This document shows positions 3,052-37,958 of a DNA stretch of 64,000 nucleotides, in pieces. The number at the start of each line of letters is the position of its first letter. Position 1 is the first letter of the stretch. Source of the DNA: Escherichia coli. Lineage in GTDB: Bacteria; Pseudomonadota; Gammaproteobacteria; Enterobacterales; Enterobacteriaceae. The DNA lies in NCBI RefSeq assembly GCF_013315695.1, contig NZ_CP054353.1; one strand, 5' to 3'. Both the position numbers and the translations under genes were made by a program. Below the pieces are notes generated by a model that saw only the letters and a program-made list of their open reading frames with translations, was not told the DNA's origin and did no database searches.

Positions 3052-3528
<477 letters not shown>

Positions 3529-3656: not shown

Positions 3657-3775
3657 AGCTACAATTCACATTTTGATAGTCATTTTACCCTGAAGTTCCC
3701 GAAGGGTCATCGTTTACTTTATAGGGCGTTGCGCCGTAGTATGACGGCTCGATTCCAGGTTGTTAGCGCGAGATT

Positions 3776-5209
3776 ATGCGATTTTCCAGATTTATCATCG
3801 GATTGACCAGCTGTATAGCGTTCAGTGTTCAGGCCGCAAATGTTGATGAGTACATTACTCAACTCCCCGCTGGTGCCAACCTTGCCCTGATGGTGCAAAA
3901 AGTCGGCGCGTCGGCCCCCGCTATTGATTACCACAGTCAGCAGATGGCGCTGCCCGCCAGCACGCAGAAAGTGATTACTGCGCTGGCGGCGTTGATTCAA
4001 CTCGGCCCCGATTTTCGTTTTACCACGACGCTTGAAACCAAAGGTAATGTGGAAAACGGTGTACTTAAGGGTGACTTAGTAGCGCGATTTGGTGCCGATC
4101 CGACGTTAAAACGTCAGGATATTCGCAATATGGTCGCGACTTTGAAAAAATCTGGCGTCAACCAAATCGATGGCAATGTGTTGATAGATACCTCCATTTT
4201 CGCCAGCCACGATAAAGCCCCCGGCTGGCCATGGAATGACATGACACAATGCTTTAGCGCTCCGCCTGCCGCCGCCATAGTTGACCGCAACTGTTTCTCC
4301 GTCTCGCTCTATAGTGCCCCAAAACCTGGTGATATGGCTTTTATACGCGTGGCATCTTATTACCCCGTTACGATGTTCAGCCAGGTACGCACCCTCCCCC
4401 GTGGTTCTGCCGAAGCGCAATACTGCGAGCTGGATGTGGTGCCAGGCGACCTGAACCGCTTTACGCTGACCGGATGCCTGCCACAACGTTCTGAGCCGCT
4501 CCCGTTGGCTTTTGCCGTGCAGGATGGTGCCAGCTATGCCGGGGCAATTCTGAAAGATGAGTTAAAACAGGCGGGTATCACCTGGAGTGGAACACTGCTG
4601 CGCCAGACTCAGGTTAACGAACCTGGAACGGTAGTTGCCAGTAAACAGTCGGCCCCGCTGCACGATCTGCTTAAGATTATGCTGAAAAAGTCAGACAACA
4701 TGATCGCCGATACGGTTTTCCGCATGATAGGCCATGCGCGCTTCAATGTGCCTGGAACATGGCGGGCCGGGTCGGACGCCGTGCGTCAGATCCTGCGCCA
4801 GCAAGCCGGTGTCGATATTGGAAATACCATTATTGCCGATGGTTCAGGGCTTTCGCGGCATAACCTGATTGCCCCCGCCACCATGATGCAGGTGCTGCAA
4901 TACATTGCCCAACACGACAATGAACTTAACTTTATCTCTATGCTGCCGCTGGCGGGCTATGACGGCTCTTTGCAGTACCGTGCAGGTCTGCATCAGGCGG
5001 GCGTGGATGGCAAAGTCTCAGCGAAAACCGGCTCGTTGCAGGGGGTATATAACCTGGCGGGATTCATTACCACGGCGAGCGGGCAACGAATGGCGTTTGT
5101 GCAATATCTTTCTGGCTATGCAGTAGAACCGGCGGATCAGCGTAATCGCCGTATTCCGTTGGTACGTTTTGAAAGCCGTTTGTATAAAGATATTTACCAG
5201 AACAATTAG
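3776..5209 (+). CDS. dacB: D-alanyl-D-alanine carboxypeptidase/endopeptidase PBP4
   Basis: 477-aa ORF MRFSRFIIGLTSCIAFSVQAANVDEYITQLPAGANLALMVQKVGASAPAIDYHSQQMALPASTQKVIT... (signal peptide plus active-site STQK). Confidence 0.95.
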   Translation: MRFSRFIIGLTSCIAFSVQAANVDEYITQLPAGANLALMVQKVGASAPAIDYHSQQMALPASTQKVITALAALIQLGPDFRFTTTLETKGNVENGVLKGDLVARFGADPTLKRQDIRNMVATLKKSGVNQIDGNVLIDTSIFASHDKAPGWPWNDMTQCFSAPPAAAIVDRNCFSVSLYSAPKPGDMAFIRVASYYPVTMFSQVRTLPRGSAEAQYCELDVVPGDLNRFTLTGCLPQRSEPLPLAFAVQDGASYAGAILKDELKQAGITWSGTLLRQTQVNEPGTVVASKQSAPLHDLLKIMLKKSDNMIADTVFRMIGHARFNVPGTWRAGSDAVRQILRQQAGVDIGNTIIADGSGLSRHNLIAPATMMQVLQYIAQHDNELNFISMLPLAGYDGSLQYRAGLHQAGVDGKVSAKTGSLQGVYNLAGFITTASGQRMAFVQYLSGYAVEPADQRNRRIPLVRFESRLYKDIYQNN

Positions 5210-6437: not shown

Positions 6438-7403
6438 TCATTCGCCTGCGCGGGGTTGCGATACCACCGTTGTATGCTTACGTAATCCGCCCCAAATACG
6501 ATGACCAATGGCGGAATACATCGCGCCCGCAACCACGACAAACGCACCGAGATAACCTAAAAGGTTTAACATCGGTCTGGCGAAGAAATCGGGCCAGGCC
6601 AGTGATAAAAGATCTGAAAAAAACAGCGTAAACAGTGGGGTGAGCGTGATGATCGCGCTCACCTGCGCTGCCTGCCAGCGAGCCATCGCTTCCGCCAGGG
6701 CGCCATATCCTACCAATGTATTCAGTCCGCAAAAAATTAAACATGCGAGCTGCCAGTGGCTAAGCTGCGCTATCACTCCAGGATTTGCCAGAGGGAAGAG
6801 CGCAATTGTACATAAAGTGTACAGCAAAAACAGGATCTGCGGTGAGGCCAGCCGACGCAATAAAACCTTTTGCGCCACGCCATAACTCACCCAAACCGTC
6901 GCCGCACCGACCCCAAAGATAACTCCCCAGGTGTAATCGGTGAGCTTTGTAAATATCTCGACCAAACTGGTGTTAAAAAACATCACCAGGCCGCTCAGGA
7001 GCATCAATGCCCCTACAACCTGAGTACTGCGCATTTTCTCTTTCAGGATAAATACGCTGGCAACCATCATGCCAACTGGCGAGAGTTGCCCAATCACCTG
7101 CGAAGCGGTCGGACTCAGGTATTGCAAGGATGAGCTGAACAGGATGAAGTTCCCAAACAGCCCGGCGGTCGCCACTGCCAACAAAATCAACCAGCGTGGC
7201 TTACGAAACACGCGTAATGGCGGCAACCGCTTCTTCACCGCAAGAATGGCACCAAGGCCAATACTCGCCATCAAGAAACGGTAAAACACGATTGTCGGAG
7301 GTTCCATCACCTCCAGCACCTGCTTCATTGCGATTGGCAACGCCCCCCAGCAAATTGCTGTGGTGAGCGCCAAAAGAATGCCAATGCCTGCCTGCTGCTT
7401 CAT
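6438..7403 (-). CDS. yhbE: EamA-family inner membrane transporter YhbE
   Basis: 321-aa hydrophobic ORF MKQQAGIGILLALTTAICWGALPIAMKQVLEVMEPPTIVFYRF...; sits between rpmA and obgE as in K-12. Confidence 0.9.
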   Translation of the reverse strand: MKQQAGIGILLALTTAICWGALPIAMKQVLEVMEPPTIVFYRFLMASIGLGAILAVKKRLPPLRVFRKPRWLILLAVATAGLFGNFILFSSSLQYLSPTASQVIGQLSPVGMMVASVFILKEKMRSTQVVGALMLLSGLVMFFNTSLVEIFTKLTDYTWGVIFGVGAATVWVSYGVAQKVLLRRLASPQILFLLYTLCTIALFPLANPGVIAQLSHWQLACLIFCGLNTLVGYGALAEAMARWQAAQVSAIITLTPLFTLFFSDLLSLAWPDFFARPMLNLLGYLGAFVVVAGAMYSAIGHRIWGGLRKHTTVVSQPRAGE

Positions 7404-9349: not shown

Positions 9350-9576
9350 TCCCCTCCCCTCATCCCGCGCAGCGCGCGGGATGAGTCCAGTAAATTCCAT
9401 AAAAACACTTATTCAGCTCTATAACACCTGAAAAATAGGGCTGTACATCTTTATATATTCTGAATATTCACACTCTTTACAGGAACTTTTTAGAGCAATA
9501 GGCCATCAGGAGTATAGTGATGCTCGACAGAAGAAGTGTTCTGAATGAAAGCGACTAACTTAAGGAGTGAGGAAAG

Positions 9577-21128: not shown

Positions 21129-21245
21129 TTGTCCGGGCAATTAGCATGTGCATGGCGGCCTGTTGTGCGGCACAACGGGCCATTTGTACGGTTAATGCTC
21201 CGAGCCTGTTCCACTGTTTGAGTGGGCAGGTTCTTAGGTGAAATT

Positions 21246-33852: not shown

Positions 33853-35283
<1,431 letters not shown>

Positions 35284-35466
35284 GCTCTGCCTCAGCGCCG
35301 CCTTCTCAGAAAAGAGTCGGCGCTGAAATTCTCCTTTCGTTCTGGAAAGCGCCTCGCATAATCTGAAGAAAACCAATGTAATACGCACATCTGGATTGTT
35401 ACCGGCAGATGCCCGGCGTATAGCTGATTCCATTATTCAACACTGCGCCATATGAAGGGACAGATA

Positions 35467-36566
35467 ATGGAATCGCTCTCAGAAGGAACCACAGCAGGCT
35501 ACCAGCAAATCCACGACGGCATTATTCATCTGGTCGATAGCGCCCGGACGGAAACGGTACGTAGTGTTAACGCGTTAATGACCGCCACATACTGGGAAAT
35601 TGGCCGACGAATTGTCGAATTTGAACAAGGTGGCGAGGCCAGGGCTGCGTATGGTGCGCAGCTAATCAAGCGACTATCAAAGGATTTACGTCTAAGGTAT
35701 AAGCGTGGGTTTTCCACCAGGAATTTATGGCAGTTTAAGAATTTTTATATTTGTTTTCAACGAATTGAAATTGTGCAGACACTGTCTGCACAATTCGCCA
35801 GACACTATCTGGCGAATCTTGCCATTTAGCGCAACTGGCCAAATCCTTCCCCCTGCCCTGGTCCACTTACGTCCGTTTGCTTTCTGTTAAAAACGCTGAC
35901 GCTCGTAGCTTTTATGAGAAAGAGACACTCCGCTGTGGCTGGTCTGCTCGTCAGCTCGAACGGCAAATTGCGACCCAATTTTATGAGCGGACACTACTGT
36001 CACATGACAAATCAGCCATGCTGCAACAACACGCTCCTGCCGAGACGCATATTCTTCCGCAACGGGCGATACGCGATCCCTTTGTGCTCGAATTTCTGGA
36101 ATTGAAAGATGAATATTCAGAATCCGATTTTGAGGAGGCGCTGATCAACCACCTGATGGATTTCATGCTGGAACTTGGGGATGATTTTGCCTTTGTTAGT
36201 CGACAGCGAAGGTTACGCATTGATGACAACTGGTTTCGTGTCGATCTGCTGTTTTTCCACCGCCGTTTACGCTGCCTGCTAATCGTCGATCTAAAAGTGG
36301 GCAAATTCAGCTATAGCGATGCCGGACAGATGAATATGTATCTCAACTACGCCAAAGAGCACTGGACGCTACCGGATGAAAATCCGCCCATCGGTCTGAT
36401 TCTCTGTGCAGAGAAAGGAGTCGGAGAAGCGCATTATGCACTGGCTGGTTTGCCTAACACCGTTCTGGCGAGTGAATATAAGATGCAACTACCTGATGAA
36501 AAACGACTCGCGGATGAACTCGTTCGAACACAGGCGGTGTTAGAGGAAGGCTATAGACGCCGTTAA
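35467..36566 (+). pseudogene. yhcG: yhcG (DUF1016 / PDDEXK-nuclease-like), apparently frameshifted into two ORFs
   Basis: N-terminal ORF (MESLSEGTTAGYQQIHDGIIHLVDSARTETVRS...) stops at TAG 35827..35829; C-terminal homologous frame (...WSTYVRLLSVKNADARSFYEKETLRCGWSARQLERQ...) is open from 35769 to TAA 36564..36566 in a different phase. The phase change falls inside tandem palindromes at 35770..35817. It may be a genuine strain pseudogene or a sequencing error. Confidence 0.6.
35770..35817. repeat. Tandem pair of 25-bp palindromes inside yhcG (copy A 35770..35794, copy B 35793..35817)
   Basis: A = ATTGTGCAGACA-C-TGTCTGCACAAT (perfect); B = ATTCGCCAGACA-C-TATCTGGCGAAT (one mismatch); copies overlap by 2 nt, period 23 bp. 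Confidence 0.85.
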
Positions 36567-36581
36567 TTTCAGCAGTTTCGA

Positions 36582-36606
36582 ATTCTCCAGACACTGTCTG
36601 GAGAAT
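36582..36606. repeat. Third member of the same palindrome family, between convergent yhcG and yhcH
   Basis: C = ATTCTCCAGACA-C-TGTCTGGAGAAT (perfect 12+1+12); same CAGACA-C-TGTCTG core and ATT/AAT ends as A and B, with complementary substitutions in the variable triplet. May double as a terminator hairpin but lacks a strong U-tract. Confidence 0.85.
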
Positions 36607-36625
36607 CTTTAAAACGAACTAAGTT

Positions 36626-37958
<1,333 letters not shown>

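Follow-up and report, generated by a model that had tools for sequence, protein, structure and literature searches.

A family-wide palindrome in the linker-coding DNA of YhcG/DUF1016 nuclease genes and its copies at the Escherichia coli gltD-nanQ locus

Three palindromes in and beside yhcG

In a 64,000-nucleotide stretch of Escherichia coli DNA (contig NZ_CP054353.1; hereafter the window), the genes gltD and yhcG are followed by the convergent gene nanQ (yhcH), and three related palindromes, termed copies A, B and C, lie within yhcG and just beyond it (Table 1). A sequence-only reading of the window had described these as three 25-bp palindromes sharing one core, with two copies inside the coding sequence and one past its stop. 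A and C proved to be perfect, but the right core of B reads TATCTG rather than TGTCTG, which leaves one C:A mismatch and means that the exact core is absent from this copy. The proposed compensation between the arm triplets was borne out for all three copies, i.e., GTG/CAC in A, CGC/GCG in B and CTC/GAG in C. The placement was right for C, which begins 16 nt past the TAA stop of yhcG (36564-36566), but only partly so for the other two, given that yhcG is frameshifted in this strain and B is out of frame.

Copy A is read in frame as I-V-Q-T-L-S-A-Q, and an identical unit is present in an intact allele (L002) and in Pseudocitrobacter (L128). Copy B, which in its own frame would give I-R-Q-T-L-S-G-E, starts 23 nt after A instead of the usual 36-39 nt; in the intact relative L002, ATTCTCCAGACTGTGTCTGGAGAAT is found 36 nt past unit A. 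The window allele corresponds to the 370-aa type of yhcG (WP_001521407) minus 13 bp between A and B, and the deletion lies between the direct repeats CACAATTC...CACAATTC of L002. Both the frameshift and the short distance between A and B are thus explained by a 13-bp deletion between two linker units. The reading frame stops at a TAG codon (35827-35829), and the RefSeq record of an identical sequence (E. coli isolate AF3) annotates yhcG as frameshifted. Only five of 5,426 complete E. coli genomes matched this stretch of the window at an identity of at least 99%.

Allowing up to two mismatches, the 13-nt core occurred at these three sites only in the 64-kb window. Counted on both strands, this amounted to six matches, as against 1.15 expected, and none of 100 shuffled sequences reached six. 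The window contained six 25-nt palindromes with an odd centre and 11 or more of 12 pairs (mean of 0.13 in mononucleotide shuffles), and A and C were the only perfect ones among them. As single-stranded DNA, A and B together had a predicted folding energy of -19.8 kcal/mol (z -7.2), and C one of about -10.2 kcal/mol on either strand.

Table 1. Features of the gltD-yhcG-nanQ region in window coordinates
Feature	Position	Strand	Description
Copy A	35770..35794	+	First linker-palindrome unit of yhcG; perfect 25-nt palindrome; ATTGTGCAGACACTGTCTGCACAAT
Copy B	35793..35817	+	Second unit; 11/12 pairs; ATTCGCCAGACACTATCTGGCGAAT
Copy C	36582..36606	.	Perfect non-coding palindrome between convergent yhcG and nanQ (yhcH); ATTCTCCAGACACTGTCTGGAGAAT
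yhcG	35467..36566	+	DUF1016_N (PF17761) and YhcG_C PD-(D/E)XK nuclease (PF06250); frameshifted pseudogene in this strain
13-bp deletion junction (approximate)	35795..35800	+	From alignment with the intact 370-aa allele; placement ambiguous by a few bases
Possible extended linker-coding relic around C	36567..36609	+	TTTCAG...GAATCT; FQQFRILQTLSGES
Hyper-divergent mosaic tract centred on the palindromes	35700..35850	+	45-73% identity with K-12-type alleles
gltD	33865..35283	+	Upstream neighbour; in other E. coli haplotypes a family palindrome lies 13-16 nt past its stop
nanQ (yhcH)	36626..37090	-	Convergent neighbour; stop 19 nt from copy C

The two domains of YhcG, PF17761 and PF06250, are precomputed for all close homologues and for orthologues, and the protein matches the PADLOC candidate defence family PDC-S02. 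DUF1016 genes are neighbours of restriction-modification and BREX loci, and in that study of programmed inversions DUF1016 is listed only as a neighbour of the targeted genes (PMC9881135). In the AlphaFold model, the palindrome units fall in coil (residues 97-125; residues 101-125 with a predicted local distance difference test, or pLDDT, score below 50) that separates the N-terminal helical domain from the remainder of the protein. The linker that the palindromes encode is therefore predicted to be disordered, and a strong protein-level reason for its conservation is unlikely, as the units sit in predicted coil. A search of the PDB by sequence returned no YhcG homologue. By Foldseek, the nuclease domain only weakly matched NucS/EndoMS and Cas4-like enzymes, with no structural clue to DNA recognition, and the fold of YhcG-type nucleases has been likened to that of archaeal Holliday-junction resolvases (PMC1189080).

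Several other features of the window were recorded. Three further 25-nt palindromes with 11 of 12 pairs (6639-6663, 9360-9384 and 21157-21181) are rich in GC and have no sequence relation to the yhcG family. A sigma-70-like consensus match (TTGAAA, 18-nt spacer, CACAAT) at 35765-35794 on the + strand overlaps copy A and might serve as an internal promoter. An apparent degenerate copy at the left end, upstream of yhcG (around 35318-35347), was a by-eye impression that no tool supported, and it was set aside.

A palindrome conserved as DNA across the DUF1016 family

An unbiased sample of 80 DUF1016 loci, fetched by means of an unrelated peptide from one-genome-per-species contigs, covered proteobacteria, Acidobacteria, Verrucomicrobia, cyanobacteria, Bacteroidota, Nitrospira, Methanoperedens, Nanoarchaeota and Woesearchaeota. 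The unit found in these genes has the form [G/A]ATT-nnn-CAGAC-RSY-GTCTG-n'n'n'-AAT[C/T], spans 25-33 bp and is held in one fixed frame that encodes I-x-Q-T-x-S-x-(K/E/Q); the Q-T-L-S of many units follows from the in-frame reading CAG ACA CTG TCT. With one mismatch at most, in-frame CAGAC-N3-GTCTG was present in one to four copies at 59 of the 80 loci, and tandem units were always spaced by a multiple of three nucleotides, most often 39. A palindrome with at least 9 of 12 pairs occupied the same place and frame at 74 loci.

Lineages that lack the CAGAC core carry another palindrome at the same spot, e.g., ATTTCC-GAGAC-AnT-GTCTC-GGAAAT, ATTTCC-GAATC-nnn-GATTC-GGAAAT, ACGCGAC-AnT-GTCGCGT or CAGAT-GAC-ATCTG, among others. 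Enterobacterial orthologues normally have a single unit, 'EIxQTxSxES'. The density of strong palindromes was 0.66 per kb within DUF1016 genes, all of them in the linker, compared with 0.031 per kb in 420 kb of flanking DNA, where they were mostly unrelated in sequence; the idea of a small dispersed repeat family can accordingly be dropped. In viral contigs, the skeleton pattern ATTNNNCAGACNNNGTCTGNNNAAT matched at 38 loci, 24 of which lie inside DUF1016 genes whose products are 30-49% identical to YhcG. The free arm triplets of the viral loci were mostly complementary at two or three of three positions, as against 0.75 by chance. The palindrome is thus native to the DUF1016 linker, ancient, and family-wide from archaea to E. 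coli. Literature searches (DUF1016 plus palindrome, yhcG, and the core sequences) found no paper describing the element.

Two side observations concern the same genes. Paralogous DUF1016 genes of one genome differ in core in two Caballeronia species (L045 and L085; L076 and L097) and in Marinifilum (L114 and L115), with CAGAC set against either GAATC or TACCC. In four loci (L067, L072, L090 and L099), the DUF1016 frame is interrupted at or beside the linker palindromes, possibly through frequent frameshifting or assembly error.

The 74 loci were aligned on the best dyad in each linker. In this alignment, 89.9% of cells were Watson-Crick paired (70.8% in shuffles; 19-44% in slid controls), the inner stem pairs reached 94-100%, and 178 cells were compensatory, compared with 55 in shuffles. 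Two-sided changes were found in 12 of the 13 stem pairs, in keeping with the earlier argument that symmetry retained through sequence change favours intrastrand pairing over a linear site. The constraint extended to codon choice. In the motif, Ser was encoded by TCT in 65 of 66 cases (16% elsewhere in the same genes), Ile by ATT in 42 of 45 (35%), Lys by AAA in 32 of 32 (51%) and Glu by GAA in 20 of 20 (56%). At the peptide level, amino acid 2 covaried with amino acids 7 and 8 (V..AQ, R..GE, W..AK, G..DQ and Q..VE), and Q..[GA] switched to E..R. Such residues covary because each synonymous site pairs with a non-synonymous one, and base pairing is the only explanation that we see in these sequences for the peptide pattern. 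The sequence-only reading had also allowed that the motif might simply be conserved DUF1016 coding sequence; it is indeed conserved coding sequence, but what is conserved is a palindrome at the nucleotide level.

Across the inner 11 pairs, G·U made up five of 814 cells, no commoner than other mismatches and without wobble enrichment. The loop is R-S-Y, and loops and their reverse complements were both frequent (ACT 25 and AGT 10; ACC 14 and GGT 8; GCT 8 and AGC 7; GCC 4 and GGC 4); a full-dyad test of complementarity between the innermost loop positions, N1 and N3, gave no correlation. On the sense strand, A:C stem mismatches (70) outnumbered G:T (30), a difference that is confounded by codon choice and on which we do not rely. 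Given that loops and stem are strand-symmetric, a DNA dyad fits better than a sense-strand RNA hairpin, and we infer, short of proof, that the constraint lies at the DNA rather than the mRNA level. Rfam 15 gave no match, up to an E-value of 1, in positions 35200-37200 and nothing relevant in six viral loci. Scanning both strands with a terminator consensus flagged none of the three copies, and the tails beside C (CTTTAAAAC on the + strand, TCGAAACTG on the - strand) have no T-run.

Structural haplotypes of E. coli yhcG and copies outside the linker

The number of internal units varies from one to three among E. coli alleles, a point on which the sequence-only reading had called for a check. 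K-12-type yhcG (375 aa) has three units 39 nt apart, the 370-aa type has two units 36 nt apart, and an in-frame deletion of 78 bp has left the O157 gene (349 aa) with one unit. The gltD-yhcG spacer of the window type is homologous to that of Pseudocitrobacter, which indicates that the synteny of the window is ancestral. In the K-12 type, an extra palindrome, GAATTCGCCAGACTGTGTCTGGCGAATC, has its ATT...AAT core 16 nt past the gltD stop and is followed by gltF-yhcADEF-yhcG and copy C. This extra copy was seen at L133:949-990 (E. coli 6409), with a left flank identical to that of the solo palindrome described below. A putative remnant to its right (CFLANAA against CHLAQLAK) was too weak to retain (E 0.06 in a tiny search; 44% nucleotide identity).

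Two other haplotypes lack all or part of the gene. In the 'empty' type (946 of the 5,426 genomes), yhcG is missing and a solo palindrome is retained: at L130:3488-3554 (E. coli GN03204), gltD is followed by a 13-nt spacer, GAATTCGCCAGACAGTGTCTGGCGAATT and nanQ. The spacer between gltD and the solo palindrome is the same short one as in the K-12 type, the palindrome is identical to unit P1, and its right flank is about 85% like that of C. In the truncated type (723 of 5,426), yhcG breaks off at precisely the right edge of unit P3 (...TGTCTGCCAAAT|TGAGAGG), and a single-copy segment of about 470 bp replaces the 3' part of yhcG together with C (L132:1950-2450, E. coli MLI023K2). A 101-aa open reading frame (ORF) of this haplotype, annotated as a transposase, had no NCBIfam match, and the segment is single-copy; it was not taken as a mobile element. 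The two main yhcG allele classes are 96-100% identical outside some 150-200 nt centred on the linker. Within this mosaic tract, the allele of the window type shares 86-96% identity with Pseudocitrobacter, a pattern suggestive of localized conversion or replacement. Rearrangements of yhcG in E. coli thus end at the palindromes, whether as deletions, the truncation, solo sites or the mosaic tract, and the earlier suggestion that the copies are recombination or deletion endpoints holds in this sense.

Copy C has a different history from A and B. No palindrome follows yhcG in Salmonella, Citrobacter koseri, Pseudocitrobacter or Kluyvera, two of which share the order gltD-yhcG-nanQ, and none of the 80 DUF1016 loci has a copy within 600 nt past the stop. 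Its absence from four sister genera and from the 80 loci marks C as an Escherichia novelty derived from the gene; the direction is from gene to intergenic site, since the copy within the gene is both ancient and universal. The further proposal that a terminator-like element had spread into the gene fits neither this direction nor the lack of a T-run or terminator call at C. Sampled variants of C have CTG/CAG or CTC/GAG arms that are always perfect and a variable loop. Recurrent flipping of the central C/G was not established, as one change would suffice to explain the six sampled alleles. The 40-mer of C occurs at a median of three places per E. coli genome, where the two strands may count separately, and every sampled place was at the gltD-nanQ locus. 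This restriction and the absence of the consensus of the repetitive extragenic palindromic (REP) sequence agree with the previous view that the element is not a canonical REP. The 40 nt at C are 75% identical to positions 35755-35794, and the C region FQQFRILQTLSGES resembles the internal FQRIEIVQTLSAQ over about 15 nt upstream (9 of 15 nt), which is suggestive, but only suggestive, of a duplicated linker fragment that included about 15 nt of upstream coding DNA.

Perfect copies outside recognisable DUF1016 genes were found in viral contigs (L028, L039 and L007/L029), and such orphan units could be what is left of deleted DUF1016 genes or could reflect independent uses. In L028, a perfect pair 39 nt apart (3742-3805) lies near the start of a phage portal gene. 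In L039, a perfect unit (3207-3231) lies where a 223-aa AAA+ ORF terminates ('...RIFQTLSGKLEGAC*'); the following ORF overlaps this end, giving the look of a split gene. L023 (9938-9985) has two perfect palindromes 23 nt apart, an overlapping arrangement like that of A and B, immediately upstream of the gene for a large serine recombinase (CcrB/XisF-like), with no recognisable DUF1016 gene nearby. A DUF1016 linker fragment of about 190 bp, comprising two palindromes and 'EDINARNFYEIEA', is duplicated 1,322 bp apart in L040 (4700-6130), where a SocA-like antitoxin gene and a second, small ORF lie between the copies; the same fragment lies 1.35 kb upstream of an intact DUF1016 gene in L043. Another contig with an orphan palindrome, L011, carries a cyclic di-GMP-I riboswitch (1651-1727; 55 bits) upstream of an iron-containing alcohol dehydrogenase gene.

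Interpretation and relation to known elements

We consider it probable, though well short of certain, that A, B and C represent the linker palindrome of YhcG/DUF1016 genes, an ancient DNA-level dyad placed in the codons of a disordered linker and capable of forming a hairpin or cruciform. In the mechanism we propose, the arms would pair within one strand during replication, and template switching would copy one arm onto the other, giving a perfect palindrome, coupled synonymous and non-synonymous sites and, at times, a flipped loop. Templated arm correction of this kind could account for covariation that is Watson-Crick only, for the frozen synonymous sites and for loops in both orientations. 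A template-switching or quasipalindrome mechanism is known to conserve perfect inverted repeats in proteobacteria (PMC5941160). The foldback would also predispose the site to slippage, to breakage and to short-patch recombination, with the result that the unit number, the linker patch or the whole 3' module would be repeatedly changed or lost, with breakpoints at the palindromes. On this account, a 13-bp slippage deletion between A and B would have frameshifted yhcG of the window, and C would be a non-coding relic copy that arose in Escherichia. The near-universal retention of the palindrome suggests additional purifying selection, and we think it reasonably likely that persistence across the DUF1016 family requires such selection on the dyad as well. 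Our leading guess is that the dyad is read by the encoded structure-specific nuclease or that it controls expression of the nuclease.

Several points weigh against this interpretation. Hairpin or cruciform formation and template switching at the site are predicted only, and in E. coli, palindromes 25-30 bp long are generally regarded as fairly stable. Covariation does not separate selection for pairing from mechanistic arm correction, so selection for structure is not proven by a pattern that templated correction could equally yield. Choosing the best dyad in each linker inflates the percentage of paired cells but leaves the variety of pair types unaffected. Protein-level selection on I, Q, T, S and K/E, transmitted through the dyad, could underlie the conserved ATT/AAT and CAGAC/GTCTG. 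The clustering of breakpoints might reflect homologous recombination between units, or some site-specific activity, and the flank similarity that links C to a linker fragment is weak (9 of 15 nt).

It is rather unlikely that the dyad is a selected cis-acting site, in the form of a hairpin, a cruciform or a symmetric duplex, that YhcG or a partner recognises for autoregulation, self-licensing or cleavage. Such a site would account for the conserved blocks (ATT/AAT, CAGAC/GTCTG and the R-S-Y loop), which go beyond mere pairing, for the different cores of paralogues within Caballeronia and Marinifilum genomes, and for the joint switch of core in both units between the close relatives L069 and L071; the strand symmetry of the dyad and the resemblance of the nuclease fold to NucS/EndoMS, Cas4-like enzymes and archaeal Holliday-junction resolvases (PMC1189080) also point this way. 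However, binding and cleavage are purely hypothetical, it is counter-intuitive for an enzyme to have its recognition site within its own gene, the 80 loci have no second copy near promoters or in flanks, and a dimer that binds duplex DNA would not require symmetry at arm positions it does not contact. An RNA hairpin that controls translation, processing or stability, with C stabilising or terminating the 3' ends of the convergent transcripts of yhcG and nanQ, is quite improbable. The predicted hairpins are stable, C lies exactly between the two convergent genes, and compensatory change is the classic signal of RNA structure; yet G·U pairs are virtually absent with no wobble enrichment, sense-strand mismatches are more often A:C than G:T, and the loop occurs equally in both orientations. 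C, moreover, has neither a U-tract nor a terminator call nor an Rfam family, and is missing from sister genera that have the same gene pair.

Less probable again are site-specific recombination sites, whether attC-like cassette boundaries or an integrase attB, with the B-to-C nuclease module as an exchangeable cassette. In E. coli the 3' module is bracketed by copies and the solo palindrome resembles an empty site, and the viral contigs offer the twin palindromes upstream of a serine recombinase gene (L023) and a toxin-antitoxin cassette flanked by duplicated linker fragments (L040 and L043). None of the 80 loci, however, has a copy within 600 nt past the stop, and yhcG of the window has no linked recombinase. 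Neither extrahelical bases nor R/L boxes, as in attC, are seen in the palindromes, and the flanks of the solo sites, being only about 85% like those of C, mark them as old haplotypes rather than products of active excision. A mobile palindromic mini-element, similar to REP sequences, Rickettsia palindromic elements (RPEs) or MITEs (miniature inverted-repeat transposable elements), that has spread by in-frame insertion into DUF1016 genes and a few sites elsewhere is very improbable. Although the unit number varies, the nucleotide sequence is nearly identical across phyla and perfect copies exist outside DUF1016 genes (at the split AAA+ junction of L039 and near the portal gene of L028), nearly all members of the family have it at one position and in one frame, lineage-specific cores track protein subfamilies, the 420 kb of flanks hold essentially no copies, several of the 'orphans' are demonstrable DUF1016 remnants, and target-site duplications are absent. 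Least probable of all is pure conservation of the I-x-Q-T-x-S linker peptide with incidental palindromy. The motif is in frame and widespread, but this explanation is already contradicted by the codon, alternative-core and covariation results: synonymous codons are frozen against genomic GC, amino acid 2 covaries with 7 and 8 as base pairing predicts, and alternative cores alter the peptide and keep the dyad. The predicted disorder of the linker and the perfection of non-coding copies argue the same way.

A more ambitious reading, which we hold only tentatively, is that a functional DNA structure, a hairpin or cruciform, has been kept in the coding sequence of a defence-island nuclease family since before the spread of the family between bacteria and archaea, as a self-site or a module-swapping hinge whose cores are orthogonal specificities. 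As a self-site it would license, repress or trigger the enzyme, its reader being the encoded nuclease or a partner, and CAGAC, GAGAC, GAATC and CGCGAC would be lineage-specific specificities. That the palindrome is a genuinely new type of intragenic DNA-structure element is likewise conceivable but doubtful.

Conserved secondary-structure signals are normally sought in non-coding RNA, whereas the present signal sits in the coding DNA of a widespread, uncharacterised nuclease family. If the dyad is selected, it would be a rare intragenic hairpin or cruciform cis-element of DNA and a concrete handle on recognition by YhcG-type nucleases. If template switching alone maintains it, this would probably be the deepest natural case in which such a process freezes synonymous sites and shapes a protein linker. 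Either way, the dyad would explain why yhcG is among the most polymorphic loci of the E. coli core region (lost, truncated, frameshifted or variable in length in a large share of genomes), why odd palindromes lie past gltD and before nanQ, and why annotation pipelines may call 'DUF1016 N-terminal domain' fragments.

Among known elements, the linker palindrome differs clearly from several that it resembles in part. Copy C, and C only, shares with REP sequences and bacterial interspersed mosaic elements (BIMEs) the form of a short extragenic palindrome between convergent genes, but it has no REP consensus, is not present in hundreds of copies, occurs only at the gltD-nanQ locus and originated inside coding sequence. 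Intrinsic terminators were discounted, as no GC-rich hairpin plus T-run was called at A, B or C. Integron attC sites likewise conserve structure while sequence varies, and act as folded single strands bounding exchangeable ORFs; however, they are imperfect, with extrahelical bases and R/L boxes, measure 57-141 bp and need IntI. The palindromes described here are perfect and bulge-free, have gltD and nanQ as neighbours and no integrase, and have a post-stop copy that is not general to the family, so we rejected this assignment. In type I hsdS genes (the TAEL repeats of EcoR124I/II), the number of in-frame linker repeats varies between strains through unequal exchange. DUF1016 units share this strain-variable repeat number in the linker of a defence-related gene, but the hsdS repeats are direct rather than palindromic and have a known effect on the spacer length of the target sequence.

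Closest to the linker palindrome among known kinds are RPEs, PARCELs (short for palindromic amphipathic repeat coding elements) and inverted repeats maintained by template switching. RPEs, reportedly described by Ogata and colleagues in 2000, are said to be palindromic DNA that is carried in frame, translated, and tolerated in surface or loop regions of proteins. With a length of 100-150 bp, they are scattered through many unrelated genes and intergenic sites within a single genus and are considered selfish insertions, whereas the DUF1016 palindrome measures 25-33 bp and belongs to one gene family across prokaryotes without being dispersed. PARCELs (PMC2996958) are also tandem, variable-number intragenic repeats of dyad-symmetric coding DNA in horizontally mobile genes, but theirs is a 25-residue amphipathic structural repeat that forms long arrays in membrane and surface proteins. 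The DUF1016 palindrome consists of one to four units of 11-13 codons, of different sequence, at a single fixed location in the predicted disordered linker of a nuclease; its unit length, its copy number and the predicted disorder in place of an amphipathic helix set it outside that family. The template-switch inverted repeats of the Ripley model (Lavi et al. 2018, PMC5941160) and the quasipalindrome (QP) hotspots of the Lovett laboratory (PMC7202029) have in common with it short arms and a spacer of 1-3 nt, arms that evolve in concert and stay perfect, a centre that can flip, and a role as intragenic mutational hotspots. The features of a quasipalindrome are present here, i.e., reverse-complementary arms with a short spacer and concerted Watson-Crick evolution of the arms with few mismatched intermediates. 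Those repeats are mostly non-coding or incidental hotspots that are conserved among close relatives, whereas the DUF1016 palindrome holds a fixed position and frame in one family from archaea to proteobacteria, with conserved blocks and tandem units.

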